Made by a program: the position numbers and the translations under genes. A stretch of DNA of 64,000 nucleotides from a virus (taxonomy: Duplodnaviria > Caudoviricetes), in the IMG/VR virus record IMGVR_UViG_3300025011_000016, one strand, 5' to 3'. Positions 9,793 to 42,952 of the stretch are shown piece by piece. The notes under the pieces were generated by a model, which was given only the letters and a program-made list of their open reading frames with translations, was not told where the DNA came from and did not search any database. The stretch's first letter is position 1. Every line of letters begins with the position of its first letter.

Positions 9793-12615
9793 ATGAAAAT
9801 TGTACCTAATAAACAACAAAAGAAAGCTGTTATTGAATCAGTGAAATGGTTAAAGAGTGGTTATAAACAAGTCTTTGAAATATCAGGTCCTCCAGGATCA
9901 GGTAAAACCTTTATAGTTTATTTAATACGAAAGGCAATGAAGCTAAATCCCTTGGATGTTCTATTTATGGCATATGTAGGAAAAGCTACAATGGCTTTGA
10001 CATTACAAGGTAATAATGCAAAGACAATGCATAGTTCTATTTATGATAGGGTTGATTTACCTAAGATGGATGAGAATGGTAAGTTTATTTTAAAAAATGG
10101 TAGAATACTTACAACTCCTGGTTTTGTTAAGAAAAAATCTTTACCTGATAATATAAAACTTATAGTGGTGGACGAAGGTTCTATGATTAATGAAAAATAC
10201 GCTTTAGATATTTTAAGCTTCAAGTTACCAGTTTTAGTGCTCGGGGACTTAAATCAGCTTTTTCCTATCTTTGGGAAACCTTATTTCTTAAGACAACCTG
10301 ATATTATATTAACAGAAATTATGAGACAGGCTAAAGATGATCCTATTATTCATTTAAGTCAAAAGGCAATTAATGGTGAAATTATTGAGATAGGAAAATA
10401 TGGTGATAGATGTTTTGTTATTAATAAAGAAGATATCACAGACAATATGCTTACAAAAACAGATATCGTTATTTGTGGTAAAAATAAGACACGGGATCAT
10501 ATAAATAAATATGTTAGAGAAGAAATATATAAAATAGACAAGCCTTATCCAGTAAAAGGTGAGAAATTAATATGTAGACAAAATAATTGGGATATGTCTG
10601 TCGATGAAGGTAAAATATTCTTAGTTAATGGTCTTGTAGGTTACGTTGAAGAAACACATTTAGACACTTATAATAAAAGATCTTTATGTATTGATTTTAG
10701 GCCTGAGTTTTTAAAAGAAACTTGTTTTGAAAGAGTAGCAATTGATTCTTTTATGAGTCACGTTGCATAGTAATATGCAATTGCAACTACTTTAATTGCG
10801 GGAAACTCCTTAGAACTTTATCTACTAATGTAACATGATAAAGATTGGACAATCTGCAGCCAATGATCTATTCATAATAGATTTAGGTCCAACGACTAGA
10901 ATGGGAAAGTTCGTAGGGCTCAAGTGAGTGGGTGAGACTCCCTTAAATCGAAATGGGTGGCCCCATTATAATAATTAGTATAATGGGTGAAGATATAGTC
11001 TGTGCTTTAAGGAAACTTAGAGAATAACTAACCGTAAGTCTTAATAACTATTCTGTATATAATTATATTATACAGTTAACAAATAATATAAGAACGGGGG
11101 TGATATAAAATGATTAAGACTTTTAAAACAAGAATACGACCGAATAAAGAACAAGAGGTATATTTAAATAAGTGCTTTGGGTATAGAAGGTTTATATATA
11201 ATAATGCGTTAGAATACTTTAATACTCTTTTAAAATATAATAATAATGTTATTGATAAGGATTTAAAGAAGTTCTTTGATAAATTTGATTATATTACTCA
11301 TATATATTCTAAGAAAGAAAAGGGACCGGGATTTGAATGGACTAAAGAATATAATAAGTCCATAAAGAATGAAGTGGCTAGTGATGTTAACTTAGCTGTT
11401 AATAGATTTTTTAAAGATATTAAAAATAAGAAGCGTTGTAAACTGCATTTTAAAAGAAAGGTTCATGGAAATGGATCGTTTAGAATATATAGTAAGCATA
11501 AAACTAATGTTATGATTCTTGATATGAAATTATTCTCTTTTATTATTAATAGAGAATTTGGTCATATGTCATTAAAAACATATGAGGACATAAGTTTCTT
11601 ATATCATCATGATATAAAAACAATGACTATTAGTATGAAGAATTTTAAATATTATGTCTCATTTACTTATGAAATAGATGTTCCAAAGCATAAGCATGAG
11701 AAAGATACCATAGGTATAGATTTAGGGATACATAATCCGGTAGTTTGTTTTGATGGAAAAGATATCATAAATCCTAAATTTCCGAAAGGAATTATTAAGA
11801 AACTAGAGAAGAGAGCCGATAAATTTTCAACGATAGTTTCTAAGAAGAAATATGATAAATGTAATCCATCAAAGAACTATATAAAAGCGAGAACCAAGCT
11901 TAATTATATTCATGGTAAGATAGTGAATATTAGAATGGATTATATTCAGAAGGTTTCAACCTTCTTAACTAAGACTTATAGAAATATCGTAGTTGATGAA
12001 TTTAGTTTTAAAGAATTACTAACAGAGTCTGATGGTATTAAACGTATTAATAGAGGTATACATAGAGTAGGTGCCTTTACGTTTATGCAAGTGTTAAAAT
12101 ATAAATGTCACTTTTACGGCAGTGAATATATTTTAGCCGAACCTAATAGTACCATTACATGCTCTGAATGTAATCATAAACTTAAAACTAAGTTGAAGTT
12201 ATCCCAAAGAGTCTTTAATTGTCCTGATTGTGGATATATAGATGATAGGGATAATAATGCGGCTATTAATATTTATAAGTCATATAAGAATCTTTATTAA
12301 CTAACGTAAATAGAGATTTCGCCGTTGGTCGGACGGTTTAAAGAACCTTGACGGTTAAGTTATTGTGGTATCTAACGAATACTACTAACACGACAGTATA
12401 AGCATTTATTTACACCATATGAACAGAGAGATAATAAACGTAGCTATTATAATAAATTTGAATTTGCCAACGCAATAAGCGTTCATTTATCACAAGGATC
12501 ACAATATAATACAGTTTTAATATATAATGAAAGAATGGGAGATAAAGAGTATTATAAGAAATGGTTATATACAGCAATATCGAGAGCGGTATCCGGATTA
12601 GTATTGGCCGTTTAA
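9793..12615 (+). CDS. RecD/Dda-like SF1 helicase, 2 exons (~390 aa spliced)
   Basis: Exon 1 9793-10746 has GPPGSGKT and VDEGSM. Exon 2 12397-12615 has SVHLSQGSQY and LYTAISRA. Junction reads VAID|YKHLF. Confidence 0.88.
10747..12396 (+). mobile_element. IStron-like element 1: group I intron + tnpB + omegaRNA-like right end
   Basis: Inserted after TTGAT. P1 TGAT/GTCA, ribozyme core 10790-11000, tnpB downstream of the S element, conserved right end ...CTAACACGACAG. Confidence 0.88.
11110..12300 (+). CDS. tnpB: TnpB (IS200/IS605-family RNA-guided nuclease)
   Basis: N-terminal KTRIRP..EQ..L..CFG..RFIYN, RuvC-I GIDLG, zinc finger CSEC..CPDC, RuvC-III DRDNNAAINI. Confidence 0.92.
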   Translation: MIKTFKTRIRPNKEQEVYLNKCFGYRRFIYNNALEYFNTLLKYNNNVIDKDLKKFFDKFDYITHIYSKKEKGPGFEWTKEYNKSIKNEVASDVNLAVNRFFKDIKNKKRCKLHFKRKVHGNGSFRIYSKHKTNVMILDMKLFSFIINREFGHMSLKTYEDISFLYHHDIKTMTISMKNFKYYVSFTYEIDVPKHKHEKDTIGIDLGIHNPVVCFDGKDIINPKFPKGIIKKLEKRADKFSTIVSKKKYDKCNPSKNYIKARTKLNYIHGKIVNIRMDYIQKVSTFLTKTYRNIVVDEFSFKELLTESDGIKRINRGIHRVGAFTFMQVLKYKCHFYGSEYILAEPNSTITCSECNHKLKTKLKLSQRVFNCPDCGYIDDRDNNAAINIYKSYKNLY

Positions 12616-13898: not shown

Positions 13899-16800
13899 AT
13901 GGCTAAATTTACAGATGATCAAATAGAACACATAGAAAGTGACATAGAGAAGATTCAGACTAAGCCTAAATATAATTGGGCTATTATATAGTGATATATA
14001 ATATAAACTTTTTTAATTGACGGAAACTTCCTTAGAGTCTAAACTACTAAATTGATATTTTAGTATATTGATGGCTGAGTGTAATTAACTCAGGTATAGT
14101 AATAATGTTTAGGATTGGATAATCCGCATCCAAGTCTCTTATAATAAGAGAAAGGTTCAACGACTAAATGTAGAGCTCAAGTGAGTGGGTGGAAATCCCT
14201 TAAATCGAAATGGAAAGCATCTTTAATAAAAGATGATGATATAGTCTTATATCCTAATGAAAATTAGGGAAGTTCATAATAGAACTGCACAGCTCAGCAA
14301 ACTGTGTGAAATAATGAATATGTACGTCAGCTATTTAGCACACCTAGGCGCATTACATTTATCTAAAGAGGTAATAAATAATTCTATAGATGAATGTATT
14401 AATCAAAATTCACCAGCTAACGAAATTAATATATATTTAGATGAAGGTGAGAATACTTTACTAGTTGCTGATAATGGTAGAGGAATAGCTTTCGATAAAA
14501 TGGAAATTGTGTGCACTAAATTACAAGCAGGTAGTAAGTTTACCAGAGAGGGTAGTGGTGGAGCTTCTGCTGGAGAAAACGGGTGTGGCATTACGGCCGT
14601 GAATTCGCTGTCGGAACACTTTGAGATAATCTCAACTCGTTATGGTGAAAGGGCTATAATTGAATTTGAATCTGGTAAGTTGGTCAGGTCACCAGTAATT
14701 AAAAAAATCGGTGATAAAACTAAACACGGTACTACAGTAAAATTTAAACCCAATCCATTTTACATGGGTGACGATTGTGATATCCCAACAGATTTATTGA
14801 TTGAATGGATTGAAAAAATAGTTTATTTAATGCCATCAAATATAGAAATATCACTAAGTGTCTCCAGAAAAGGTAAAGAATCTGCAATAAATAAAAAGTA
14901 TCGTAATAAAAATGGTTTAAAGGACTATATTTTGAAATTGTGTAAAAAGCCTATTTTAGATCCAATTCATTTTATGAAATCTTTAAAAATTAAAGAATTT
15001 GATAAAGGTAGAGAGATCGAAAGATTCATTGGATTAGAAACAGCTTTTACTTACAATTCAAATAGTATGGAACCTATTATTGAATCATTTTGTAATTTTG
15101 TGGTCACTGTTGAAGGGGGTATTCACAACGATGCTGTTAAACAAGGTGTTGTCCAATTCTTAGTTAGGAAAACTAAGGAGGGTTTATCTGATAAAGAATC
15201 GAAAAATATTGATATACTACCTATAGACGCTACTCAAGGATTAGTGTTGACATTATACTTAAGTACCGATATGAATATGATGTTTGCATCACAAACGAAA
15301 GAAAAACTTTCTAATAATGCTTTCTTCAAACCACTCAGAAACATGACATTTAATTCATTGGATGAATACTTTAAAAAAGAAGTTAATGATTTAAAGAAGA
15401 TAACAAGTTTTATTAAGACTAATGCTAAAGCAAGAATTGAATCAAACAAAGCTAGAAATGCTGTTATTAAAGGTGAAACTACTTCATTCGAAGAACACAA
15501 AATGAAGAATTTCTCTCCTGCAAATAATTTAGGGAATGATTACAGAGAGTTATTTGTTATAGAAGGTAAATTAGATTGCCTTATTTTCTTTAATTGACGG
15601 GAAACTCCTTAGAACTTCTTAATTGAAGATTGGACAATCCGCAGCCAAGTCTCTTTATATAAGAGAAAGGTTCAACGACTAGAGTATGTAAGCTCGTAGG
15701 TTTATTTATAATCCGAAATGGGAAAACAATAGATTTATTCTATTGAAGAGATAGTCTAATATCCTAATTAACATTAGGGAAGTTCATAAGAGAACTGTAT
15801 AGAGTTATAATCTATATGAATGATTGGATTCAGCAAAGGGTAGTGCAAGGTTAGGTAGGGATACGGATACTCAGGCATTATTTGCAATGCGAGGAGTTCC
15901 ACTTAATAGTTTTAATCTAAAGTTAGATAAAGTTTTATTGAATGATGAATTTAGGGATTTAACTAAAGTATTAAAATGTAATATCGGTGAACGATTTGAT
16001 ATTACAAAACTAAATTATAAAAAAATAATCATACTTACGGATGCGGATTAATTCATAGTCCCATTATGTAGTGATATATAATGTAAACTTCTTTAATTGA
16101 CGGGAAACTCCTTAGAACTTCTTAATTGAAGATTGGACAATCCGCAGCCAAGTCTCTTTATATAAGAGAAAGGTCCAACGACTAATAGTAGGGCTCAAGT
16201 GAGTGGGGTAATAACACCCTTTAAATCGAAAATAGAGGCATCTTTTATAAGATGATGATATAGTCTACACTTTATTGAAAGATAAAGAAAGATAGCATCT
16301 TTACATTATCTAACGAATAATGTTAATATGAATGGATTGATGGTTTGAGAATAGCCTCACTAATTTGTGTATTCTTCTTATGTCATATGCCAGAGATAAT
16401 TAAGCAAGGATATTTATATAAATCAGTATCACCACTATATTTATTAAATGATACTAAGGGTCATTTTATTATTGATAAAAAAGAGTATGTATCAGTTTTT
16501 GAAAAAGCTGTTAGAAATAACATTAAAGTTATTGATCCAGAAACTAATATTGTTTATACTAATAATGAGATGAAAGAGTTACTATTAAAGAATAGGGGAT
16601 ATTTAGAGGAGTTATACCGAGTTAGTAATCATTTTGCAGTTAATCCTTTTATCATTGAATACATCACCATATATGGGGATCAATCAAATTTCATAAATAA
16701 AATGAAAAAGAAATTCCCTGAGTTAACACTTGATGAAGAAAATGTTTTATCTGGTATATATGAAGGAAAATATCAGATTATTATATTGGATAAAATATTC

Positions 16801-20983: not shown

Positions 20984-22252
20984 TTAAGCCTCATGATTAG
21001 ATACTAACTCGAATAACTCTCTAAAATCTACCATATTATGAAATACCTTTATTGTCATGTAATTAAGCATCCACGAGAAAATCCGCCTACTATTGTCATT
21101 CTTATTGAAATCGAGATAATATTCATTAATAAATTTTTCAGAACTCTCTATATCATCTTCAAGAGTTTTTCTTAATCTGGGATTTAAATCAGGATCTTTT
21201 AAATCCCTCTTTAGTTTATCTAATTGAGAATTTATTCTAACGGCGTCCTGTGGATGAGGATCGGCGATAGCCGTTAACATTCCCAAGGTTACATTAAGCA
21301 GATCATAACCCCAGTTTAATAGGGGAATTTTGTATATAATTTGATCGGAAATAAGGTTTTCTCGTTTATGTAGTTTATTTTGGAAGCTCATCATGGCTGG
21401 ACCATATCCATATGTGGAAGCAAAACTATCTGAGTATTTTTCTCCAGCATAACCAAATATATTTCTTGAATTTAAAGCACCCAACACTATAAGTTCGGGA
21501 CCTTTAATTACATTAATAAAACTCTTAACTTTAAAATACGCCATAATATTTAAATAACCTTCCCAAAAAGTTGTAGCTGCTCTAAGTAATCCAGGAAATT
21601 TATTTATCAATAATGACTCGACTAATTTTATCGTATTTGTATATTTACCCCCTAAATTAAACACATCATATATTCCTAAAACCATAAGTGTGTTTATAAT
21701 ATATACAGGACCATTTTTTATAAATTCTGGGACTAACATAATATCTAGTGGTAATTTAGACAGGAGTGTGAACATTGATATATCCATATTATGACCTATT
21801 TCATGAAGTATGACTGCCATAATTTCTTCTGCTGTTAAATCAGCGTATAATACTAACAGTATATCTATATTCACACCCACGTGCATAGTAGATACATCTG
21901 TAGATCCCGTATTATCTCGATGAAAGAAATTAAAAGCTCTTGGTATAGTAAATGCATTAAACGGGGTTGTTAATAATACAGGCTTCATAGGATAATAGAA
22001 ACATAAATAGAATTCACCAAATCCAAATTTCTGTTTAAATAACTTCTCTATAAGAATAACACTATCATTCTTATTCAGATCAGTTATTTTTATTGGGGTA
22101 TTAATTTTTTCTTTTAAATCGGAAAATTTGGGATTATCTTTTCGTATTATTTGTATTATTTTATCCAGTTCTTTTTCTATAATAAGAAATTCTTTAGGTT
22201 TACCATAATATGCTTCGGTAACAGGTTTCATAAATGATGTTAATATGCCCAC
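20984..22252 (-). CDS. HExxH zinc-metalloprotease-like protein, probably virion-associated
   Basis: AVILHEIGH..EKYSDSFA, with an AACA-N6-TA motif upstream on the minus strand. Confidence 0.55.
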   Translation of the reverse strand: MGILTSFMKPVTEAYYGKPKEFLIIEKELDKIIQIIRKDNPKFSDLKEKINTPIKITDLNKNDSVILIEKLFKQKFGFGEFYLCFYYPMKPVLLTTPFNAFTIPRAFNFFHRDNTGSTDVSTMHVGVNIDILLVLYADLTAEEIMAVILHEIGHNMDISMFTLLSKLPLDIMLVPEFIKNGPVYIINTLMVLGIYDVFNLGGKYTNTIKLVESLLINKFPGLLRAATTFWEGYLNIMAYFKVKSFINVIKGPELIVLGALNSRNIFGYAGEKYSDSFASTYGYGPAMMSFQNKLHKRENLISDQIIYKIPLLNWGYDLLNVTLGMLTAIADPHPQDAVRINSQLDKLKRDLKDPDLNPRLRKTLEDDIESSEKFINEYYLDFNKNDNSRRIFSWMLNYMTIKVFHNMVDFRELFELVSNHEA

Positions 22253-22283
22253 GATAAATCACTTCCTTCTATATATTCGATAT

Positions 22284-22310
22284 TAAACTATTGTTTAAAA
22301 CAATCATTTA
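22284..22310. promoter_or_regulatory. Back-to-back divergent late-type promoters (AACA-N6-TA on both strands)
   Basis: TA-aactat-TGTT-taa-AACA-atcatt-TA between divergent genes. Confidence 0.6.
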
Positions 22311-22342
22311 AATAGATAATGTTGATAGGTAGGTGTATTTAT

Positions 22343-23506
22343 ATGGCTAAAGATGACAGTGTTTTATTAGATGAGTTATATCCTTTAGTTGAAAAGGGTT
22401 TATCTAAAAAGGAAAATAGTATGAAGATAAAGAAAGCTGTTGGTGAGTTCTTAGATAGAAATTCTGAGAAATTAACTACTATTGGCCCGATCCATCAAAT
22501 GATGTTTACAGATGAAGATATGAAAAAACTATACGATGCTATCGAAGTTCCACCTGAGCAGATAAAAGAGATAATTAAGAAATCTCCATATATACAAACT
22601 CAGTGGAAGATTATGAATAATCCATTTAATTCAGCTTGTGTATTAGCACTCAGATTTTATAAATTACATAAGAATGATGAAATGGTTAATTCAGTCTTAA
22701 TATATCTAACTATGTCTATGTATCCATCATTATTTCATAAATACTTTCAGTTTGAACCCAATGAAAACATAATGAATTATACTATTAATAGCTTATCTAA
22801 TAAATTTAAAATTAAACAAACTGGTACTATATATGGGGCATTAATAGATACTGTTAGAGTGAATGATACAAAATATGGAGATGAGGTATTACATGGGACT
22901 GATAAAGAATTAGTAGATTATATTAACTCTATTAAAACTCGTTTGAATAGTTTATTAAAACATATCTCTATTGAGTTTTATAAGAATCATGAAAATAAAA
23001 ATTATATGAATTCAGACTCTGATAATTTAGAAGAAGAAAACTATCATGAAGCTGACAGTAATTTATATGCAATTGAAAGGATAACTAATAATGTAGTTCT
23101 TAAATTAACAGTAGAAGGGCCTAATATTAAATTGATCAATATGGCTGCTGAATTATCACAAGTTAGTAGAAATGAATTAAGGAATTATGTAAATTCAATG
23201 GTCTTAAATAATAATAGAGATGATATCAAAATTATAGTAGAGAGTATATTATTCTTATTTTTATTTGATTCACAAAATCAAATTCAAGAATTAAGTAGTA
23301 ATAAATTTCTATTGTATTGTAGAGAGATGTATCGAAAGTCTAATACAAATGATGAAAACATAATAAAGATAAAGAAGATATTAGACTCATGGTTAACTGA
23401 CTTAGGAACATATAAAAAGACCCAAAGATTAGCTACTATTAACTCATTTAGAAAAGCTTTATTTATGTTTTTTGTTATAAGTATCCAGAATGCAAATGTA
23501 GTTTAA
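22343..23506 (+). CDS. Hypothetical protein (jumbo-phage type)
   Basis: Long clean ORF. ATG 22343 follows AGGTG. Confidence 0.65.
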   Translation: MAKDDSVLLDELYPLVEKGLSKKENSMKIKKAVGEFLDRNSEKLTTIGPIHQMMFTDEDMKKLYDAIEVPPEQIKEIIKKSPYIQTQWKIMNNPFNSACVLALRFYKLHKNDEMVNSVLIYLTMSMYPSLFHKYFQFEPNENIMNYTINSLSNKFKIKQTGTIYGALIDTVRVNDTKYGDEVLHGTDKELVDYINSIKTRLNSLLKHISIEFYKNHENKNYMNSDSDNLEEENYHEADSNLYAIERITNNVVLKLTVEGPNIKLINMAAELSQVSRNELRNYVNSMVLNNNRDDIKIIVESILFLFLFDSQNQIQELSSNKFLLYCREMYRKSNTNDENIIKIKKILDSWLTDLGTYKKTQRLATINSFRKALFMFFVISIQNANVV

Positions 23507-23755
23507 AGATGATACGAATATGATTTAAATCATATTCGTATCATCTTTATCTTCCTCTATATAGACATCTTCACATTTTAAACCTCTAATTAACATACTC
23601 TCAAATATATCATCGGGAATTTCATTTACCAAGTATTTATTATATGAGTTGAGTTTACAACCGGCTTCTACATCTTTGACACCTATGAATTAGTTCATTC
23701 ATTAACATATCAGCTCCTTTATTTATATGTAAACACTTTTTTATAGTATAATGAA

Positions 23756-23767
23756 AACATTTTATTA
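23756..23767 (+). promoter_or_regulatory. Late-type promoter AACA-N6-TA upstream of the split RBS
   Basis: AACA-ttttat-TA. Implies a ~24-nt leader containing AAAGGAGG before the intron. Confidence 0.55.
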
Positions 23768-23790
23768 ATTGAGACATTATAAAGGAGGAT

Positions 23791-24381
23791 TCATATTGAG
23801 TCTCGTTGCATAGTAATATGTAATTGTAACTACTTTAATTGCGGGAAACTCCTTAGTGCTTAAAACACTTTTAAAGTAACAAAGTTTAAGATTGGACAAT
23901 CCGCAGCCAAAGTTATTATTTAATAACGAGGCTCAACGACTATCCCAATGGTACTAAAATGTACATTAGGAGTAGGGCTCAAGTGAGTGGGTGAGATTCC
24001 CTTAAATCGAAAAGGGTAGCCCCATTATTATAATGGGTGAAGATATAGTCTGTGCTTTAAGGAGACTTAGAGATATAACTTAACCGTAAGTAAGTCTTAA
24101 TAATTCATTCTTAATAAGATATTATTATAGTTATAACAAATAATATAAGAAGGGGGTGACGATAAATGTTTAAAACTTTTAAATACATCTGACTAAAAAA
24201 GCTATGTATTGACACGAAACTTATAAATAATGGCGATAACCAAGCCTATTAATAATATTTATAAGTTGTAAAAATCTTTATTAACTAGCGTAAATAGAGA
24301 TTTCGCCGTTGGTCGGACGGTTTAAAGAACCTTGACGGTTAAGTTATAAGTGGTATCTAACTAATACTACTAACACGACAG
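23791..24381 (+). mobile_element. Mini IStron-like element 2 (tnpB internally deleted) in the SD-AUG spacer
   Basis: Inserted after GGAT. P1 GGAT/GTCT, intact ribozyme core, tnpB remnant and same right end ...CTAACACGACAG. Confidence 0.88.
24166..24290 (+). pseudogene. tnpB: tnpB remnant (start MFKTFK and last codons only)
   Basis: Same RBS/leader as the full copies, then a stop after 8 codons. The 3' part aligns with ...ATTAATATTTATAAGT..AATCTTTATTAA of element 1. Confidence 0.75.
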
Positions 24382-24385
24382 GAAT

Positions 24386-26063
24386 ATGTCTATTACTAAA
24401 CAGGCTAGAAAACAAATGGAATTATTAATTTATTCAGTATTTACAGCTTTAGATCCAACTGGTTCTAATACTGCTAAATATAAAGAATTATTTGGTAAAA
24501 TGAATGATACTCAATTTGATAAATTCTTCAAAGATTTCTTTAAAGAGGAAGATGAGTATCTTATATTAGACGTTATTGATTATGAGTTAAATCTTCAAAT
24601 GGAAGATGTAGAAAGAGCTGCAAAGATTCTTGATGTACCTTTATTCGAAAAAGTTGCAATGCCATTTATTAACAACAATACAGAAAATCCTGTTGTTACT
24701 CAATATGAAGTTCCGGTTGGTTACATTAACTTGAAACGGGTTCAACAAATATTAGCTAAAAAAAATACTACATCTACAGAAATATCAACACGTTCTGCTA
24801 TAACAGGACAAGTTGTTGGTAAGGATAAAAATGCCAGAGATTCAGATCAGGAGAATTTTGCTCTTGTCACTTTAAATGCTACGAACACATTACGTGAGCT
24901 TTTGGGTTATGTTGCTTAGCCCCTATATACGGTAACGTATATAGCAAACTTCTTTAATTGCAGGAAATTCCTTAGAGCTTATTATATGAAGATTGGATAA
25001 TCTGCATCATATTTTCTAATGATTAAAATATTTTCTTACTAATAAATATACAATATTTTAAAGGATGTGAATTATAAAAATGTATATAGTCATTCGTAAA
25101 GATAGAGAAATATTTAAACTTGTAACATATCCTAAAGTCAAACCTGATACTTATGAAGTTAGTAATTATGGTAATATTAGAAATTTAAAAACTGGCAAAT
25201 TAGTAAAATTATTTCCCGATACAAAAGGTTATCCTTTTGCAAATCTTATGTATAAAAAATCCATTGCTCGTAGTGTTAATATCCATAGGTTGGTAGCGTG
25301 GGAATTTGTAGATGGATATGATATAGATCGAGGGAGAACTAATGTTAATCATCTGGACAGCGATCCTACTAATAATTATTATGAAAACCTTGAATGGGTT
25401 ACAACTAAAGAAAATAATCAACATGGTATTAAACATGGTAAGATTAGATTTGGTGCAGGTGGTAGTCTAAATTATAAAGCTAGATATAATGAAGAATTTT
25501 GTTCGTAAACTATGTCCATACATTGAAAAAGGACTCACTCAAATGGAAATAATGCATATTTACGGTTATAAAACAAGAAAAGAAAATAAAAGTTTATATT
25601 CTTTAATAGATGGAATTTACTGGGGTGTGTGGAGAGAGGTATCAAAAGAATTTAATATTAATATAAAACAAGAAAAATGTTCAACGACTATCCTTTAGAT
25701 GTGAAATTCATCATTAGGAGTAGGGCCTAAGTAGGTGGGTGAGACTCCCTTAAATCGAAATAAGAAGCATCTTATATAAGATGATGATATAGTCTTGTAT
25801 CCTATATAACTATAGGGAAGTTCATAAGAGAACTGCATAGATTAACGAACTATGTGAAAGTATCGCCCAGGAGTGATGACCTTGTGATGAAAAATCAAAT
25901 GTATGCTAGTATAGCTCAAAAAGGATATGTATCACTAGATGAACTACCGAACGATGTTGCCAATAAAACAACGCTGAATACAATTGATGTGCATCTTATT
26001 GGCTTAGGTATTAAAAGCGATTTAATCACTCAAGGATTATTAGTTAGAAAGACTATGAAATAA
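24386..26063 (+). CDS. RNA polymerase beta-subunit C-terminal fragment (~239 aa spliced; probably virion RNAP)
   Basis: Exons 24386-24907 and 25866-26063. VPVGYINLKR..ARDSDQENFAL..TLRELLG|PRSDD parallels bacterial RpoB VTVGYMYMLKL..RFGEMEVWAL..TLQEMLTVKSDD. Confidence 0.75.
24908..25865 (+). mobile_element. Group I intron with HNH endonuclease ORF in P6 region
   Basis: P1 GGGT/GCCC. Q motif lies before and R/S motifs after the ORF. Ends ...GTATCG. Confidence 0.88.
25080..25698 (+). pseudogene. Intron-encoded NUMOD4/HNH endonuclease, frameshifted
   Basis: HRLVAWEF..NHLDSDPTNNYYENLEW. One extra T in GAATTTTGTT (~25500) splits EEF|VRKLC into ORFs 25080..25508 and 25489..25698. Confidence 0.75.
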
Positions 26064-26104
26064 AAAAATAATAAGATGAGTTTAACTCATCTTATTATTT
26101 TTTC
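26063..26104. terminator. Perfect palindromic bidirectional terminator
   Basis: AAAAATAATAAGATGAGTT-t-AACTCATCTTATTATTTTT between convergent genes. Confidence 0.7.
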
Positions 26105-26672
26105 AATATGTTATTATACCTCTATTAGTACGAAACCATCCAAAATCAGTTTTTTCCATGGGATGTATAATAAAACCCTTATTATTGAGCTTCTGAAAAT
26201 ATTTCAAGTAATCAGGCTCATTATCACCAATTAATAATTTATTTAACAAAGCTGAAGCTTCTTCCTCTAATGAACCCGGACGGAGCTCTATAAAAATATA
26301 ACCCATGCGTACTTCAGATTTGATAGGCGTGGTACCTTTATGTATTAGATTGAGGATATTTACTAATGTAATGAAATTCATTTCTGATGTGCAGTGTAAT
26401 TCAGTCGAGAACCTTGATGTAATATTTGATAATTTCTTAACGCCGCTCTTAATGAGATAATCAATAGCTTCAAAATCAATTATGCCGTCCAAGGGTTTAT
26501 TTTCATCGAAGGTTACTTGTAAACAATCCAATTCATTTATAGTGCTAACACTATCCTTCCCCTCAATAATACAACCCACGACAGGATTATATCCTCTGAT
26601 TTTAAAGACCCTTCCATTTGGTAATTTGAAATATACATTTTTATCAAACATCACTATATCACTCCGATTCAT
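26103..26672 (-). CDS. Hypothetical protein
   Basis: Clean ORF in an operon with the upstream HExxH gene. Confidence 0.6.
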   Translation of the reverse strand: MNRSDIVMFDKNVYFKLPNGRVFKIRGYNPVVGCIIEGKDSVSTINELDCLQVTFDENKPLDGIIDFEAIDYLIKSGVKKLSNITSRFSTELHCTSEMNFITLVNILNLIHKGTTPIKSEVRMGYIFIELRPGSLEEEASALLNKLLIGDNEPDYLKYFQKLNNKGFIIHPMEKTDFGWFRTNRGIITY

Positions 26673-26675
26673 TTA

Positions 26676-27167
26676 TTACATTGATTTTAAAACATCTAGT
26701 CGTTTTATCAATTCAGTATTTTTAGGTAATTGAGTAACTATGTATTCTAACCCATGTATGGATTTTTCAATACCAATATTATTAACAGCATATGTATCAG
26801 CATCCAATTCTTTTTGATCAACTTGTTGAAATTTAGCTTTAAATGGACGCAGGAATGCATTCCATTGAGTTAATTGTTTACCTTCAAAATGACCACATTT
26901 AAAATGACCAATTTCATGAGCCAGTATAAATATTCGAGTATCTTCATCAGCATTCATATATAGTTGATCGACATATATTATTAAATCATTTAAACAGGTT
27001 TGGACTAAGGCAAATTTTATATTTTTAAAATTAAGTAGAGCCTCATCTAGAGCAACCGATATGTTTATACCATCATAAACAAATTGACTTAATAATGGGA
27101 CGGGTCGTTGTTTACCACATATTTCACCGAATATTAATTTAACATTACTAATAAAAGTTTTTAACAT
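26676..27167 (-). CDS. HExxH metallopeptidase-like protein (M48/ImmA-like)
   Basis: FILAHEIGH..ELDADTYA, with TATATATTAT at 27205-27214 (minus strand). Confidence 0.65.
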   Translation of the reverse strand: MLKTFISNVKLIFGEICGKQRPVPLLSQFVYDGINISVALDEALLNFKNIKFALVQTCLNDLIIYVDQLYMNADEDTRIFILAHEIGHFKCGHFEGKQLTQWNAFLRPFKAKFQQVDQKELDADTYAVNNIGIEKSIHGLEYIVTQLPKNTELIKRLDVLKSM

Positions 27168-27594: not shown

Positions 27595-28740
27595 GTGATA
27601 ATATTGCTAAAGTTATGTATTATTGGATTGGGTAATTGTGGTAATCAAATCGCTGAATTAGCAAAGAAAGAGAAGAATATTCCGGGTATCGCTATTAATA
27701 GTTCTGAAAAAGATCTTACTACTATCAATACTGTTGATAAGATCCTAATAGGCGATATGATGGGTAGTGGTAAAGATCGGAATGAAGCTAAACGCTTCAT
27801 AACTCAAAATATTCAGTTGATACTTCAACAAGAAGTATTTAAAAAGCTGATAGAAGAAAGTAACGTGATATTCATAGCTTCTTCTACTAGTGGCGGAACT
27901 GGCTCTGGTATGACACCGATCTTAACTGAAATACTTACGAAAATTTACCATGGGAAAAGATTCGTTGTCATTCATGTTTATCCGGCAATTAGTGAGTCTG
28001 TTGCGGCTCAACAAAACTCACTGGACTATTTAAAAGAGTTGAGACAATTTATTCCCAATATTACCTATATGGCTTATGATAATCATCGTAGGTCAAATGA
28101 GCCGACTGACAGAATGATGACTGAAATCAACATGCAAGTGGTTAATGACATTTGTGTGATCCGTGGAGATTATCAATACTCAACTCAATATAGTTCAATT
28201 GATGAAAAGGATATGCTTAAGTTAATTGAAACTCCAGGCCGGTTGTTGATAACAACTGTAAATGGTTTAAAGGAAAAAGATCTTGATGAAAAATCTGTTG
28301 AGGATATCTTAATATTTGATATCAAGAACACTTCAGTAGCAGTGGAAATTGAGCGTGACCGACTTATAAAAAGAATAGGTCTGATCACGAACTTAAATGA
28401 TAAAATCCATAAAGCATTCAATACTAAGTTAATTATCTTCAAAGAATTTATCGGTGAGCCGGTAGAAGGATTCGAACATATCCATATCAATAAAGGCCCA
28501 GATGAATCTAATCAAATTATTGTAATAATGTCTGGCTTATCAGTTCCAGACGATCGTATTCAGAAAATGATTCAAAGGATTGAAGAAGTTCGATCGGAGT
28601 TAATGAAAGTTCAAGGATCATCTATCCTCGATTCCATAAAAACCGAGGATATTGATATATTACGAGAAAACTCTGGACGGTTTGATCCAGAGAGTCAAAT
28701 TAACCTGACTGACGTTATGGCAAAATATCTTAAGCGTTAA
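27595..28740 (+). CDS. tubZ: Tubulin/FtsZ-family GTPase (TubZ/PhuZ-like)
   Basis: GLGNCGNQIA, GSGKDR and tubulin signature STSGGTGSG. Confidence 0.88.
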   Translation: MIILLKLCIIGLGNCGNQIAELAKKEKNIPGIAINSSEKDLTTINTVDKILIGDMMGSGKDRNEAKRFITQNIQLILQQEVFKKLIEESNVIFIASSTSGGTGSGMTPILTEILTKIYHGKRFVVIHVYPAISESVAAQQNSLDYLKELRQFIPNITYMAYDNHRRSNEPTDRMMTEINMQVVNDICVIRGDYQYSTQYSSIDEKDMLKLIETPGRLLITTVNGLKEKDLDEKSVEDILIFDIKNTSVAVEIERDRLIKRIGLITNLNDKIHKAFNTKLIIFKEFIGEPVEGFEHIHINKGPDESNQIIVIMSGLSVPDDRIQKMIQRIEEVRSELMKVQGSSILDSIKTEDIDILRENSGRFDPESQINLTDVMAKYLKR

Positions 28741-33527: not shown

Positions 33528-36500
33528 ATGGCAGTAACACCACCAAAGAAAGTGGTCCCAAATTTATCATTGAAAGAAACATTGCAAGAGAAGGAACAAT
33601 TATATCATGGTAAAGATGATATATTCGGAATGACATTACTTACCAATCCAGGGTATATTAGTGCATCTCGAAACATTATGTTTACTTCTCATTTAAGACA
33701 ATTCGTAAATTTGAATAAACCGGATTTCCCAAAAGTATTAACGAATTATGAAAATCTTGTTGGTAAACATTCAACTGGATATTTCAAACCTAAGAATGAT
33801 TTAATCGTTGTGGATAAGATACCCAAGTTTAATGATATAAATGATGCAAATCATTTATATCTATTATTCTTATATGATAAGAAGACTAATACTTACTCCG
33901 TTATACAGAAAAAGATCGTTGAAGATCTAACAGAGAAGTTTGGTTTTAAATATAAGAATGATCTTATGGATTCTAAATCTATCGGAGATAAAATACAAGG
34001 AGGTAAAACATTATATTCATCCACATCATATGATGAAGATGATAATTATAACTATGGTAGAAATATTAAGTTTATGTATCTACTTGAAAACAATACTATT
34101 GAAGATGCCATAAAGTGCTCTGAATCGTTATCTAAAGAAATGACTTCGACTGAGGTTGAAACTGTAAAGATATCATTCAATGATAATGAAATCATGTGTA
34201 ATCTTTATGGCAACAATGATGAATACAAAGGTTTTCCAGATATTAATGAAAGGGTTAAAGATAAGATCATATGTGCCAAAAGAAGAATTCATAACAATCA
34301 ATTATTATTCGATCTAAAGAAATCAAATCTACGTAAGATTAATTTTATGTCAGATAACTTATTCTTTATTGATGGAAAGATTGTTGATATTACTATCTAT
34401 TCAAATAAACCTATTGGAGAAATTGAAGATAATATCTTTAATCATCAAATGTTAAAATACCTTAAAATGCAAAAAGAATTTTATACTAAAGTTTTAGATA
34501 GGTGTAAAAAGATAATTGCATCTGGAGCTAAATATTCAAATGAAATAAATTTCTATTATAAGAAAGCTAAGAATATATTAGACGATAATTACATGTACAA
34601 GGAAGAAGATAACAGTGTATTTAGTAATATGGTTATTGAATTCCTTGTTGAACGAGAAGTTCCTTTATCAGTAGGACAGAAGATTACTGGTCGTTACGGT
34701 AATATAATTGCTGTATTTTCTTTAATTGTCGGGGATATCCTTATAGCTTAAACTACTATTAGTAACAAGTTTAAGATTGGACAATTCGCAGCCAAGATTG
34801 TTAATAAACAATAAGGTTCAACGACTAGAGTGAAAACTCGTAGATTCGAAAGAATTGAAATGGGAAAACGATAGATTTTAATCTATTGAAGATATAGTCT
34901 AATATCCTAATGGAAGTTAGGGAAGTTCATAAGAGAACTGCATTATATAATAATGTGAATACTTGAATAAAGGTATTATAAGTCAGATCATACCAGATGA
35001 AGAAATGCCATTTCTTGAAACTGGTGAACGTGTCGATTGTATATTCAACTCCCTAAAATTTTGGGGCTTTATGTAGTGATATATAATGAAAACTACTTTA
35101 ATTGCGGGAAAATTCTTATGGCTTTATAATATAAAGATTGGACAATCCGCAGCCAAGATTGTTAGTAAACAATAAGGTTCAACGACTAGAGTGAGAACTC
35201 GTAGATATTAATATCGAAATTGGTAGAATCTTCTATATAGAAGATTATGAGATAGTCTGGTATCCTATATAACTATAGGGAAGTTCATAAGGGAACTGCA
35301 TTAATTAATAATTACTGTGAACACAACGAGGTGTGATAAATCGCTTAACTGAGAAGGTCCGGGCGATGTAAAACCTTTCTAATTGCGGGGACATTTGTTA
35401 ATTTCAATTTACCAAGTTAATATATTAATGGCTTAGTCCAATCAACTAAGGTATGGTAATAAGAATTGAAATTGAGTAATCCGCAGCCAAGATTGTTAAT
35501 AAACAATAAGGTTCAACGACTAGAGTGAAAACTCGTAGGTTTATTTATAAGCCGAAACGGAAGGCTGGTAATACTTAATATTATTAGAAGATATAGTCTA
35601 AAACATTTGTGAACTCATTTCAGTTATATGAGCAGTCAATAAATTTTATATGTAATCGCATAAGAGAAAGAATTGCGATAACAGAAGATATCTCTATAAA
35701 AGAACAAATGGTATTTAGTATTGTGGGTCATTTTAATCCTGAAGAACAAAGAAGACTTAGGATATATTATGATAAGTTATCAGATAATGGTAAGGATCAT
35801 TTCTTCGATGATATAGTCAAGCAAGGTATCTATATACACATTCCTCCACTTTGGGAAGACGTATGTTTATTCGATAAACTAAGAGCAATATATGCTGAAT
35901 TCACATGGATAAAACCATACTCAGTTTATGTGAATAAATTTGGAAGAAAGATCAAAATGATGAAGGATTTAATTGTCGGAGAAATGTATGTTCTTAAATT
36001 AAATCAAACTTCAAAGAAAGGTTTTTCAGCCAGATCCACTGGTTCGTTATCGAAGAGAGGAATTCCTATTTATTTATATGGGACTATATAGAGTAATCTA
36101 TATTGTGAAAACATTTTAATTGACGGGAAACTCCTTAGAACTTCTTAATTGAAGATTGGACAATCCGCAGCCAAGTCTCTTATAATAAGAGAAAGGTTCA
36201 ACGACTAATTTAGAGCTCAAGTGAGTGGATGAGAATCCTTTTAAATCAAAATAAATGTCATCCGTAAAAATAATAAATAACGGATGGTGATATAGTCTTG
36301 TATCCTATATAGTTATAGGGAAGTTCATAAGAGAACTGCATAGATTAACGACCTATGTGAAAGTATCGGAGAAATCAAATAAAGCAAAAACCCATCAAGA
36401 ATTATATCCACATACGCCTCAATTTGTAGGGGCTGTTGTATAGTAATATATAATGAATCTTTCTTAATTGACGGGAACCTTCTTAGAGCCTTATTTACTA

Positions 36501-37552
36501 AACTATAAGTATTATAGTGGCCAGAATAATTAACTGGGTATAGTAATAAAAATAAGGATTGGATAATCCGCAGCCAAGATTCTTATATAAGAATAAGGTT
36601 CAACGACTATCGAAAGCTTTTAATTAAGTTAGTAGAGTAAGCTCACAAGTCAATAATGGTGAGTTAAAACAGAAAGCTCCTAGAAATAGGATAAAGATAT
36701 AGTCTGCTATCTCAAGGAAACTTGAGGAGTTCATAATGGAACTGCATAAATTGACGATTTATGTGAACAAAAAAGGATACGAATTGGAGATTACTTATAT
36801 AGTTTCCCTGCATAGTAATATGCAGTTTAACAACTCTTTTAATTGACGGGAAACTCCTTAGTGCTTTATAATATAAAGATTGGACAATCCGCAGCCAAGC
36901 CTCTTTATGAGAGAAAGGTTCAACGACTAGAGCATTGCTCATAGATTTACAAGTTAATGGTAAGTCGAAATGGAGAGCTCTATTAATAAACTTTATTAAT
37001 AGATGAAGATATAGTCTGCACCTTAAAGAAATTTAAGGACAATCTTTTGAATTGTAATACATGTTACGAATGTATTTAACATATTGGCAGGAAAATATTA
37101 ACAGTATGATAGGTGTCGATCCAGACATCATAGCTAAACTACATTTATTCTATAGGTCTTCAGTTGTTGGAAGAAGAAACTTAGGTGAAACTTTGGCAAC
37201 TAGACTTAAGTTATTAAATGATTTTAAGTATTCTGCGGAATTCAAAAATAGAAATGTTGAAATTTTACAGGCATATTTAAAAGCTATGGGCGTAAAGATT
37301 GTATTTGAAAATGAGAATATGTATATTGAAATCTATACTGATCAGTTAGAAGAATATTCATCTGAGGGTAGGATATATATATGTACTAAACGTGAGTTTG
37401 AAGCCGTTCAGAGAGAAGCAGAAGTTCGCAGAGAGTTCCGTGAGGATAAGTGCTTAGTGGGAACTCATGCTGAAGTTGAAGCTATTATTCAAGCTCGTAT
37501 CAGCGATCTAAACAAACGAGATACTCATTATGTAATTGACATAAATTTATAA
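33528..37552 (+). CDS. RNA polymerase beta-subunit C-terminal half (probably non-virion RNAP), 7 exons / 6 introns (~755 aa)
   Basis: Exons 33528-34700, 34966-35054, 35329-35345, 35610-36067, 36369-36419, 36777-36791 and 37088-37552 (2268 nt). Restores KITGRYG|NKG, FNSL|GVINR|LNSFQ, GIP|EK and TP|IRIGD|QEN. Confidence 0.88.
34701..34965 (+). ncRNA. Group I intron betaC-I1
   Basis: P1 TACGGT/GCTGTA and core motifs. Confidence 0.88.
35055..35328 (+). ncRNA. Group I intron betaC-I2
   Basis: P1 CCCT/GGGG and core motifs. Confidence 0.88.
35346..35609 (+). ncRNA. Group I intron betaC-I3 (no recognisable P9 domain)
   Basis: P1 ATCGCT/GGCGAT and core motifs. Only 11 nt lie between GATATAGTC and the terminal G. 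Confidence 0.8.
36068..36368 (+). ncRNA. Group I intron betaC-I4
   Basis: P1 TCCT/GGGA and core motifs. Confidence 0.88.
36420..36776 (+). ncRNA. Group I intron betaC-I5
   Basis: P1 GCCT/GGGC and core motifs with a variant P7-P8 region. Confidence 0.85.
36792..37087 (+). ncRNA. Group I intron betaC-I6
   Basis: P1 GGAGAT/GTTTCC and core motifs. Confidence 0.85.
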
Positions 37553-39186: not shown

Positions 39187-42100
39187 GTGAAAGATATGGA
39201 TAAGCAAAATATAATATCACAATTAAGTGATATTCATCAAAGGTTATTAGAAAAAGAAGATTTTGTTGATACTATACAGAGACTAGAATTAATGAAGATC
39301 AATAGACTTATCAATTATCTTTTATATGCAATTACTGAATATGATCCAGATGACAAATTAATACTTCAATTATTAATAAGGATATTGCAAAATATCTTTA
39401 ATAATAGTAGTGAAATATCTCCTGTGACCGATGAGGATTATGATAAATTATATGAGTTAAACAGACAATTTAATAATGAAGAAATTGTTGGATCGTCTTT
39501 TAATAAATCCAATAAGATAATTTCAAGTCATAAATATCCTGATTTGAGAGGAACTCTAGATAAGGTCCATTTCATTAGAATTAAAGATAAGGGTAAAGAC
39601 AAACGAAGATCTATAGAAGATTTTATTAATACTGTAGAAAATAAAATAGGCAGATCTTTAACTAAGGATGAATCATTCGCCTATCTATTTCCTAAATGGG
39701 ATGGTATATCATGTATATTCGAATGTGATGAAAATGGTAATACCGATAAGGCATTATCTAGAGGTGATACTGATATAAATGAAGCGGTCGACTGGACTAA
39801 ATTGTTTAAAGGATCTAATTTCAAGTATGTGTTCGGTAATGATATAAATAGATTATTTGGTTTAAAAACAGAGATTGTAATGAGTCGTTCAAATTATAAA
39901 TTAATATGTGAAAAAGAAGGAGATCTTAAAAGTCCAAGGAGTGCCGTATCGTCTATATTAACTTCATTAACTGGTGACACATCGAATTTACCATATCTAA
40001 CTATAATACCTTTACAGACTCAGGAGTTTGAAACTAAATCTATATATACTCCAACTATAGTATATGATGAGTTTCCATACAGTGGAGGATATTTAAACAA
40101 TTTAGATGAGATCGAATTAAGAATGTTGGAGTTAAGAGAACGTATTTATACTGAAATGGATATAGATACAGATGGTGTGGTTTTTCGTTTAGCTGATCCA
40201 TATATACAAAAACTATTGGGTCGGGAAGATAAGATAAATAAATATGAGTTTGCATATAAATTCCCTCCAGAACAAAAGAAAACTATAATTAAAAATGTTA
40301 ATTTCTCAGTTGGTCTTTTAGGTTCAGTGCGACCAGTAGCAGTAATAAAACCTGTTACAATAAAAGGTAATACTATAACCAATATATCATTGGGTTCTAT
40401 AGATAGATTTGAAGAATTGGATTTAAGATTAGGTGATGAAGTTATAATAAAATATGATGTTATACCATACCTATCAATAGATTCAACATGTAGAAAAGGA
40501 GATGGGACTAAGTTTACAACTCCAACAAAATGTATATATTGTAAGGAAGAATTAGTTAAAGATCCCATATTGAAATGTATTAACGAAAAATGTAATTGTC
40601 GAATTATAGGTAAGATTCTAAACTATACTAGTAAGATGAGTATTTCAAATATGGATGTTGGAACAGTAACCACTTTATTTGAAAATAAGTTATTACGATC
40701 TATTGGTGATCTATATAAACTCAAAGATCATAAATCTGATATAGTTTCATTAAGTGGTTTTGGTGAAAAATCCTTTAATAATATTATTAAAGGTATTGAT
40801 TCAAGACGAGATGTTTATGATTATGAGTTATTGGGTTCATTGGGTATTACAGATATAGGTAGGAAAATGTTTAAGCGAATTTTAAATATATATTATATTG
40901 ATGAACTTATAGATTCAAGTACATGAGTCTCATTGCATAGTGATATGTAATAGTAATTACTTTAATTGCGGGGATCTCCTTAGAACTTAAAACACTCTAA
41001 AGTAATAATGTTTAAGATTGGACAATCCGCAGCCAAGATTCTTAATAAAGAATAAGGTTCAACGACTATCCCAGTGGATGTGAAATTCATCATTAGGAGT
41101 AGGGCTCAAGTGAGTTGGGTGAAATCCCATTAAATCGAAATGAGTAACCCCATTATAAACCATTATAATGGGTGAAGATATAGTCTGTGCTTTAAGGAAA
41201 CTTAAAGATATAACTTAATCGTAAGTCCTAAAAATTTCATTTATATATTATTACTATGATACTAACAAATAATATAAGAAAGGAGGTGAATTAAATTGAT
41301 TAAAACTTTTAAAACAAGAATACGACCGACGAAAGAACAAGAAGTATATTTAAACAAATGCTTTGGATACAGAAGGTTTATATATAATAATGCTTTAGAA
41401 TACTTTAATACGATCTTAGAATTCAATGGTAATAATCTGGATAAAACATTAAAGAAGTTCTTTAATAAGTTTGATTATATCACTAATATATATTCTAAGA
41501 AAGAAAAAGAACCTGAACTGGAATGGACTAGGGAATATAATAAAAACATAAAGGATCAGGTATCTAGTGATTTTAATATAGCTGTTAATAGATTCTTTAA
41601 CGATATTAAAAATAAGAAGCGATGTAAACTTCATTTTAAAAGAAAGATCCATGGAAATGGGTCTTTTAGAATATACAATAAAAATAAAGGTAATGTTAAA
41701 ATTCTTGATAAAAACATATTCTCTTTTATTATTAATAGAGAATATGGTCATATGTCATTAAAAACATATGAAGATATAAGCTTTTTATATCATCATGATA
41801 TAAAAACTATGTCTATTCGTATGAAGAATTTTAAATATTATGTTTCATTCACCTATGAATTGGACATTCCAAAGCATGATCATGAGAAAGACATCATAGG
41901 TATAGACTTAGGGATACATAATCCAGTAGTTTGTTTTGATGGAAAAGATGTCATAGCTCCTAAATTTCCGAAAGGAATTATTAAGAGACTAGAGAAGAAA
42001 GTCGATAAGTTTTCAACGATAGTTTCTAAGAAGAAATATGATAAACGTAATCCATCAAAGAACTATATAAAAGCGAGAACCAAGCTTAATGATATTTATA

Positions 42101-42952
42101 TTAAAATAACAAATATCAGAATGGATTATATCCAGAAGGTATCTACATTTTTAGCTAAAACTTATAAAAACGTTATAGTTGATGAATTTAGTTTTAAGGA
42201 TGTATTAACAGAGTCTGATGGTATTGAGCGTATAAATAGAGGTATACACAGAGTTGGTGCCTTTACATTTACCACAGTGTTAAAATATAAATGCCACTTT
42301 TATGGTAGTGAATATATTTTAGCATTACCTAACAGTACGAACACATGCTCTGTTTGTAATCATAAAGTTAAAACTAAAATGAAGTTATCTCAAAGAGTCT
42401 TTAATTGCCCACAATGTGGACATATAGATGATAGAGATAACAATGCGGCTATTAATATCTATAATACATTTAAACGATCTTTATTAACTAACGTAAATAA
42501 AGATTTCGCCGTTGGTCGGACGGTTCAAAGAACCTAAACGGTTAAGTTATTATGGTATCTAACGAATACCATTAACACGACAGTTATGCCTAAAGAATAA
42601 GATGGGAGGGCTGTTATTAATCCGTGGGATTAAAGAAATAACAGCCGTTAAAATTATTGAGGGCATAAAGTCGAATAAAAAACTTATTGATTTATTACGA
42701 TCCGAGATTAATTTAAGGAGGGATGTAAGACGATATACAATTAAAGTATGTTTTACTAAAGTTAGAGATAAAGATTTTGAGAAATTTCTTGAAAGTAAGA
42801 ATGTATTGGTTCTTGAAAAATATAATAAGGAGGTTGATGTGTTAATCATACCTTATAAAGATATTGATTCAGTCAAAGTTACTACTGCGAAGAAAGATGG
42901 TAAGGATATCGTAACCATCGATGAAGCTTATAAGATGTTTGGTTATAAGTAG
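39187..42952 (+). CDS. ligA: NAD-dependent DNA ligase, 2 exons (~698 aa)
   Basis: Exon 1 39187-40914 has PKWDG, DGVV, AYKF and a C4 zinc finger. Exon 2 42584-42952 has HhH and BRCT-like tail. Junction LID|LCLK is in frame. Confidence 0.9.
40915..42583 (+). mobile_element. IStron-like element 3: group I intron + tnpB
   Basis: Inserted after TAGAT. P1 AGAT/GTCT, core motifs and right end ...TTAACACGACAG. Confidence 0.88.
41296..42537 (+). CDS. tnpB: TnpB, close paralog of 11110..12300
   Basis: Same motifs (GIDLG, CSVC..CPQC, DRDNNAAINI). TTG start after AAGGAGG. The ORF reads into the right-end RNA. Confidence 0.92.
   Translation: MIKTFKTRIRPTKEQEVYLNKCFGYRRFIYNNALEYFNTILEFNGNNLDKTLKKFFNKFDYITNIYSKKEKEPELEWTREYNKNIKDQVSSDFNIAVNRFFNDIKNKKRCKLHFKRKIHGNGSFRIYNKNKGNVKILDKNIFSFIINREYGHMSLKTYEDISFLYHHDIKTMSIRMKNFKYYVSFTYELDIPKHDHEKDIIGIDLGIHNPVVCFDGKDVIAPKFPKGIIKRLEKKVDKFSTIVSKKKYDKRNPSKNYIKARTKLNDIYIKITNIRMDYIQKVSTFLAKTYKNVIVDEFSFKDVLTESDGIERINRGIHRVGAFTFTTVLKYKCHFYGSEYILALPNSTNTCSVCNHKVKTKMKLSQRVFNCPQCGHIDDRDNNAAINIYNTFKRSLLTNVNKDFAVGRTVQRT

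Follow-up and report, generated by a model that had tools for sequence, protein, structure and literature searches.

The 64,000-nt stretch analyzed here, the virus record IMGVR_UViG_3300025011_000016 (Duplodnaviria; Caudoviricetes), is referred to as the window; it belongs to an uncultured jumbo phage akin to the Bacillus phages AR9 and PBS1, known from a groundwater metagenome study. Genes for a split multisubunit RNA polymerase (RNAP), a PhuZ-like tubulin, GyrA and LigA were found in it. Between the Shine-Dalgarno (SD) sequence and the AUG of a gene for a virion RNAP beta-like fragment lies an IStron, i.e. a group I ribozyme with an IS605-type transposon right end, which carries no open reading frame (ORF) and is hereafter called the mini element. 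This placement had been proposed in an earlier reading made without database searches (the sequence-only reading), and matches to phrogs, tblastn and AR9 annotation agreed with it.

The gene is homologous to the RNAP domain of AR9 gp077, which the AR9 annotation lists as a virion RNAP subunit; it also matched proteins of phiR1-37 and CR5 whose annotation is either RNAP beta subunit or virion structural protein. Its N-terminus matched those of the homologs residue for residue, which identifies ATG 24386 as the start of the family. In front of it the leader is split: AAAGGAGGAT runs up to position 23790, and the exon restarts at G24382 with GAAT followed by the ATG. The interval in between, 23791–24381, is 591 nt long and reads base for base as the sequence-only reading had claimed. 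An upstream coding exon was considered and rejected, since no open frame crosses the junction, with an in-frame TAA located two codons before it, and the N-termini of the homologs align to ATG 24386.

The ends of the mini element were assigned by comparison with two full IStron copies of the window, A and B, which interrupt coding regions (Table 1). Removal of copy B joins at least 499 open codons to 123 codons; the last 200 residues of exon 1 and exon 2 were mapped on an intron-less relative (G001, an IMG/VR contig), in which the two exons abut exactly (20187|20186) within one 702-amino-acid (aa) frame. Without copy A, open frames of 322 and 73 codons become one, in which AAA_30/AAA_19 stands beside UvrD_C_2, a RecD-like arrangement. 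The exon and guide halves of P1 covary among the three copies, being UGAU/GUCA in A, AGAU/GUCU in B and GGAU/GUCU in the mini element, and the flanks of other copies end in GAT like those of these three (TTGAT in A, TAGAT in B and AGGAT in the mini element), while the 3′ terminus is ACAG versus TCAG in group A IStrons. These comparisons point to a family rule of cleavage after ...GAU and ligation after ...ACAG; since the rule is fixed by the intragenic copies A and B, the splice sites of the mini element are predicted at 23790|24382. The splice sites would therefore be the transposon ends, with the host sequence restored in copies A and B and an SD-AUG leader like that of related phages obtained from the mini element. 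A proximal 3′ splice site just past P9 (about 24072) was considered but not accepted as the principal one: the distal ACAG| is obligatory in copies A and B, and no copy varies in the P9.0 partners or in the terminal G.

Rfam, BLAST and alignments to copies A and B revealed that the mini element is indeed an IStron without ORF whose splice sites coincide with its ends, as previously suggested. The full-length model of RF00028 matched positions 23781–24072 with 86.3 bits (E 1e-20), compared with 80.8 bits for copy A and 80.3 bits for copy B, and this score ranks fourth among the 22 Rfam-listed introns of the window. In the Rfam alignment, the conserved U.G pair of P1 corresponds to U23790/G23800: the exon half of P1 is GGAU (23787–23790), and the internal guide sequence (IGS) is UGAGUCU at 23797–23803, in which G23800 faces U23790. 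In addition, UGU of J7/9 (24051–24053) could pair with ACA at 24378–24380 as P9.0, both being invariant in the three copies.

The left part of the mini element (23791–24183) was 78–82% identical to those of copies A and B, whereas its right part (24219/24250–24381) matched the right ends of copies A and B with 93% identity over 132 nt and 82% identity over 163 nt, respectively. All three copies finish in AACACGACAG, beyond which their sequences diverge, and the right end shared with both TnpB-carrying elements, together with a predicted guide, is thus present in the mini element as the sequence-only reading had noted. Four stem-loops are predicted in the right end, all of them kept in the mini copy and shared by four copies, with a compensatory change in one pair; no Rfam family matched this predicted omegaRNA scaffold region. 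By analogy with IS605/IStron biology (10.1101/2023.11.20.567912), the guide would be read from the beginning of the 3′ exon.

The tnpB gene itself, found 3′ of the ribozyme in the full copies, is deleted from the mini element and only remnants are left; homology to the full tnpB ends at 24183, leaving six homologous codons (24166–24183). Because the tnpB ribosome-binding site (RBS), these six codons, a C-terminal remnant and a complete right end remain, the mini element is an internal-deletion derivative of the TnpB-carrying IStrons of the same phage. In keeping both ends without a transposase or TnpB ORF while full copies exist elsewhere in the genome, it resembles palindrome-associated transposable elements (PATEs) and miniature inverted-repeat transposable elements (MITEs). 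Its match to copies A and B lies far beyond chance at the sequence level; only the position of the insertion is prone to chance.

In copies A and B, tnpB is full length and looks intact, and the products contain the Pfam domains OrfB_IS605, Cas12f1-like_TNB and HTH_OrfB_IS605. TnpB of copy A could be aligned over its whole length with structures of ISDra2-type TnpB, and both the DRD...N motif and the cysteines of the zinc finger were part of the match. No tnpA was found in the three copies of the window; the gap between ribozyme and tnpB is just 88 nt in copy A, and none of the copies has room for tnpA. It was noticed that TnpB may replace a homing endonuclease in such copies.

Searches for further copies gave little. 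IMG/VR contained no match to a 22-mer taken from the right end, and an 18-mer matched 50 metagenome loci, among which only L044 was a true copy, containing a tnpB 3′ end and the right end; the others were dismissed as chance matches in G+C-rich DNA. A public 2.2-kb contig (L066, positions 1–340) joins a different left flank (coding, TAGAT) and the initial 90 nt of another IStron copy to the mini element. It was rejected as evidence for a different left flank of the mini element, since the mismatches are concentrated in these 90 nt at the start of the intron, indicating a chimeric assembly across the repeated intron core; intron-rich phage bins of the same study may hold more such joins.

Removal of 23791–24381 would give ligated exons reading AAAGGAGGAU|GAAUAUG, in which GGAGG and AUG are separated by 6 nt, the spacing calculated in the sequence-only reading. 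Without splicing, 597 nt separate the strong SD from the AUG, and the sole SD-like sequence nearby is AGGA at 24380–24383, 2 nt from the ATG, also as had been stated. The distance from GGAGG to the start codon is 5–11 nt in 15 other plus-strand genes of the window, and GGAGG at 23784 is an orphan SD unless the element is removed. Splicing would also create an in-frame AUG spanning the junction (AU|G) right after GGAGG.

Seven distinct relatives were compared (L001, L002, L003, L057–59, L060/61, L062/63 and AR9; 56–83% aa identity). All 7 possess the RNAP fragment gene, L057–59 being the closest (83% aa identity); the insertion was present in 0/7, and the six metagenomic relatives have an uninterrupted leader from SD to start codon with no leader intron. 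A 15-mer of the ligated exons, TAAAGGAGGATGAAT, is identical to the uninterrupted L060/61 leader. These sequence comparisons indicate that the insertion of the mini element is lineage-specific. Since the window genes keep the SD at 5–11 nt and the relatives have uninterrupted leaders, it is a sound inference that translation of the RNAP fragment would depend on splicing.

AR9-like phages transcribe their genomes with their own RNAPs. A sigma-70 promoter scan performed no better than on shuffled sequence, and an AACA-N6-TA motif was found (Table 1) that fits the AR9 late-promoter consensus, AACA-(6N)-TA/G, in which the transcription start site (TSS) is the last base (PMC5312081). The late promoter P077 of the AR9 homolog, g077, has been validated (PMC5312081), and 4 of the 5 other homolog groups have the same motif 30–50 nt ahead of their ATG; the motif scan detected no AR9-type late-promoter motif inside the element. 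Judging from the motif, transcription probably starts at 23767, leaving a 5′ exon of just about 24 nt. Further upstream, the palindromic hairpin at 23503–23550 is likely a transcript boundary; a simple terminator scan did not call it, and its stem is not G+C-rich. The 280-nt spacer following the palindrome is missing in the relative L001, in which the same two genes are 24 nt apart.

Table 1. Features of the RNAP fragment locus and the two full IStron copies in the window
Feature	Position	Strand	Evidence
Perfect 24-bp A/T-rich palindromic hairpin just past the stop of gene 22319–23506	23503–23550		Sequence; miRNA-model hits on both strands (spurious)
AACA-N6-TA motif AACATTTTATTA, fitting the AR9 late-promoter consensus; predicted TSS A23767	23756–23767	+	
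Predicted 5′ exon, leader of about 24 nt with SD AAAGGAGG (23781–23788) and AU at its end	23767–23790	+	
Mini element: ORF-less IStron, group I ribozyme and IS605-type right end, 591 nt	23791–24381	+	Rfam, BLAST, alignments; boundaries transferred from copies A/B
Group I ribozyme core, P1 to P9	23791–24072	+	RF00028; core blocks invariant among three copies
tnpB start remnant: SD-like AAGGGGGTGA, ATG 24166, 8 codons to TGA	24150–24192	+	Alignment with copy A, BLAST end points
Right end with predicted omegaRNA scaffold, decayed TnpB C-terminal coding remnant, omega-G 24381, terminus AACACGACAG	24219–24381	+	BLAST
First 20 nt of 3′ exon, GAATATGTCTATTACTAAAC; predicted TnpB guide/target half of the empty site, start codon inside	24382–24401	+	
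Coding exon 1 of the virion RNAP beta-like fragment, 174 codons	24386–24907	+	phrog_3233, phrog_23439, tblastn, AR9 annotation
Second group I intron, within the coding region, with HNH/NUMOD4 endonuclease ORF 25080–25508	24908–25865	+	Pfam HNH_3 and NUMOD4, intron-core similarity
Coding exon 2 of the same RNAP gene	25866–26063	+	tblastn, L001 residues 173–238
IStron copy A, full, 1650 nt, in a RecD/PIF1-like helicase gene; tnpB 11110–12300; left flank TTGAT	10747–12396	+	Rfam 80.8 bits, Pfam
IStron copy B, full, 1669 nt, in an NAD-dependent DNA ligase gene; tnpB 41296–42537; left flank TAGAT	40915–42583	+	Rfam 80.3 bits, Pfam

We therefore consider it likely that the mini element is a non-autonomous, ORF-less IStron in the leader of a late gene, which lost tnpB by internal deletion and is tolerated because it is spliced out. 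Efficient translation of the gene should need splicing, since in the unspliced RNA the SD is 597 nt off and only the 4-nt AGGA, 2 nt upstream, is at hand; we regard this need for splicing as most likely a side effect of a selfish insertion that splicing renders harmless, not as an evolved switch. In the order of events that we propose, 1) the mini element would have inserted after a GAT motif that by chance formed the 3′ border of the SD region, 2) transcription would begin about 24 nt upstream at the AR9-type late promoter, 3) the ribozyme guide GUCU would pair with the exon GGAU and the RNA be cut after U23790, 4) the U23790 end would be joined to G24382, past the terminal G24381, and 5) the ligation would recreate the leader type of intron-less relatives, so that only spliced RNA would bring the strong SD and the AUG together. 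Approximately 0.6% of the GAT sites in the window fall in a gap between SD and start codon, and the genome appears to have at least 6–7 copies of the element; therefore, it is not remarkable that one of them landed in such a gap.

Several observations weigh against this interpretation. P10 is weak in the canonical register, and a 5-bp pairing made up of A and U alone needs a 1-nt shift. The late-promoter motif is weak and common, with 62 plus-strand occurrences in the window. The unpaired probabilities calculated by RNAfold around the SD and the AUG do not clearly separate spliced from unspliced RNA. Moreover, L060–L063 appear to have an SD-ATG spacing of 0–3 nt, so that the host may tolerate short spacing and some translation from AGGA-AU-AUG may occur. 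Finally, a UUG at 23796, 7 nt past the SD, opens a 5-codon ORF (MSLVA, stop at 23811) through the IGS in the unspliced RNA, and ribosomes on it may interfere or compete with the formation of P1.

A reading compatible with tolerated selfish insertion, to which we attach a tentative and rather low likelihood, is that the mini element also serves as a guide-RNA satellite: its omegaRNA, with TnpB supplied in trans, would cut the intron-less alleles of co-infecting relatives, which would then be converted by recombination, i.e. RNA-guided homing. The right end is intact though the ORF was deleted, TnpB is encoded in the same genome, the lack of space for tnpA in every copy fits such a route, and the GAT common to the left flanks of all known copies (TTGAT, TAGAT and AGGAT, plus loose ends) is consistent with a target-adjacent motif. 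However, the flank of the mini element, AGGAT, deviates most from TTGAT, and the sites of the relatives do not fit the guide (L060 agrees with it at 12/20 positions by hand count). Besides, the empty allele (joint 23790|24382) was absent from the contigs of four DNA runs of the source groundwater study over 21000–27000; the same contigs bridge both boundaries of the element, and the joints and loose ends listed stem from other intron copies.

It is unlikely that, in line with the sequence-only reading, the leader intron is an evolved switch gating the RNAP subunit, in which TnpB from the ligase and helicase IStrons would bind the mini scaffold in trans, block splicing and thereby tune timing or amount. 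The preserved stem-loops of the scaffold with their 93% identity to copy A, the two full-length tnpB genes and the end-to-end alignment of copy A TnpB with ISDra2-type proteins would all suit such a role; furthermore, in a clostridial IStron, TnpB/omegaRNA was demonstrated experimentally to compete with splicing, and right-end truncations raise splicing (10.1101/2023.11.20.567912). Nevertheless, tuning by TnpB in trans is speculative: the insertion occurs in none of the seven sampled relatives, with no sign of conservation or selection; binding of TnpB would simply mean that less is made of a structural enzyme that is essential; a sensor domain is lacking, Rfam giving no aptamer in 23500–24700; and the position is compatible with chance insertion at a GAT site, as calculated above.

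The mini element might even be a working RNA device whose single transcript has two fates, in which splicing would assemble the RBS and the start codon of the virion RNAP subunit, while capture by TnpB of a sister IStron would form an RNA-guided nuclease having the same start region as its guide; we regard this as quite improbable. If true, the making of phage RNAP would be linked to RNA-guided homing, or to shutting out competitors that lack the intron, and in an infected cell one would come at the cost of the other.

Least probable of all is a dead relic that has lost splicing, its gene being translated unspliced by weak or SD-independent initiation or poorly expressed. Although the weak P10 and the very short SD spacing tolerated in relatives would fit, the ribozyme scores as high as introns within essential ORFs, and its P1 guide still fits the exon. 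The omega-G, both P9.0 partners and every core block are the same as in copies for which splicing is obligatory. Moreover, the gene encodes a virion RNAP subunit that is essential, and an orphan consensus SD is retained precisely at the 5′ splice site.

The RNAP gene is interrupted a second time by an intron with an HNH/NUMOD4 ORF, whose junction was mapped against the uninterrupted 239-aa protein of L001. This internal intron seems to have an identical site, past the codon of residue 174, in two relatives with only 62–64% identity; there (L060–L063, about 3035–4000) the first ORF encodes 177 aa and an HNH/NUMOD4 ORF comes next. The intron is absent from the closest relative (83%) and from L001.

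Phage introns are thought to persist chiefly in conserved coding sequence. Rfam listed 22 group I introns above the gathering score in the 64-kb window, with 56.6–95.4 bits, many of which break ORFs, and at least 3 further introns bear ORFs or escaped the fast Rfam filters; copies A and B, with about 80 bits each, escaped the default filters. Introns are clustered at 2241–4329, 13958–16287, 34665–37038, 46225–47111 and 59184–60216, with up to 7 per approximately 2.4 kb, and some of the exons between clustered introns are only tens of bases long. A tubulin/PhuZ-like gene (27595–28740) is located 1.5 kb downstream of the RNAP fragment gene. Should the phage form a nucleus-like compartment, its transcription would no longer be coupled to translation, and this might be part of the reason why many introns, the leader intron included, are tolerated.

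Both the components and the principle of this arrangement are already known; what is new is the combination, namely an ORF-less intron of transposon origin inside the region where translation of an essential phage gene is initiated, TnpB being encoded by sister copies. The sequence-only reading was not aware of any description of a group I intron splitting an RBS; its claim of novelty is not supported, as a precedent exists in Clostridioides difficile (Lee et al. 2010, as cited in PMC3984707), where, according to the accounts in PMC3984707 and PMC9481103, group I splicing of the c-di-GMP ribozyme sets the RBS beside the start codon. As far as those accounts go, the c-di-GMP-II riboswitch/ribozyme shares with the mini element a group I ribozyme in the 5′ untranslated region whose splicing brings the RBS to working distance; on sequence this likeness holds for the mini element as one of mechanism, not of membership. 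The C. difficile system, as described there, is controlled by an upstream aptamer, employs an alternative GTP attack site and has no transposon end or guide RNA, whereas the mini intron is a recent copy of a mobile element. No riboswitch family was detected by Rfam in 23500–24700 (E up to 1), and the predicted 5′ exon of about 24 nt also counts against an allosteric riboswitch. Should splicing be confirmed, the mini element would be a natural mobile group I intron tolerated inside a translation initiation region, and the second natural case, after the C. difficile c-di-GMP ribozyme, of translation requiring group I splicing.

Among mobile elements, the mini element is closest to the group A IStrons of the IS200/IS605 type (CdISt1 of C. 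difficile and its relatives), with which it shares the 5′ group I ribozyme, the 3′ IS right end and splice sites at the element ends; copy A is inserted at a T-rich pentanucleotide ending in GAT (TTGAT), as in that group, and the ...CAG 3′ terminus and full copies with TnpB (ORF B) are also common to both. Natural ORF-less variants and many intergenic insertions exist in group A as well: Tourasse et al. (2014) described IStrons without ORFs and IStrons in phages of C. botulinum, and of the 202 IStron sites 58% were intragenic, hence 42% intergenic (PMC4227781). The present family differs in 1) its host, an AR9-like groundwater jumbo phage, 2) the lack of tnpA or a tnpA remnant in any copy, and 3) an ORF-less copy inside a translation initiation region, with exons that are non-coding or close to the start codon and a flank of AGGAT instead of TTGAT. 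The finding also strengthens the view that AR9-like jumbo phages of an aquifer harbour tnpA-less TnpB IStrons, which bears on the question of TnpB replacing homing endonucleases.

In CboIStron and CdiIStron, as would be the case here by analogy, the omegaRNA scaffold overlaps the 3′ splice-site region and the guide is the 3′ exon, and an ORF-less "mini" form is expected to splice; Zedaveinyte et al. also reported a PATE with IStron ends and no ORFs (10.1101/2023.11.20.567912). That work concerned intragenic bacterial elements and an engineered mini-IS, whereas the copy described here is a natural one for which TnpB could come only from other copies, and the RNA concerned carries the ribosome-binding region of a gene. 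It could thus serve as a test bed for the conflict between splicing and omegaRNA formation, downstream translation being tied to the fate of the RNA and TnpB acting strictly in trans. Introns of the AR9/PBS1 type have invaded the same RNAP gene family, likewise in a late gene with an AACA-N6-TA promoter, since the annotation of AR9 gp077 joins 3 pieces and includes an HNH ORF in an intron; however, the AR9 introns lie within coding sequence, encode homing endonucleases and have no IS ends, in all of which the mini element differs from them.

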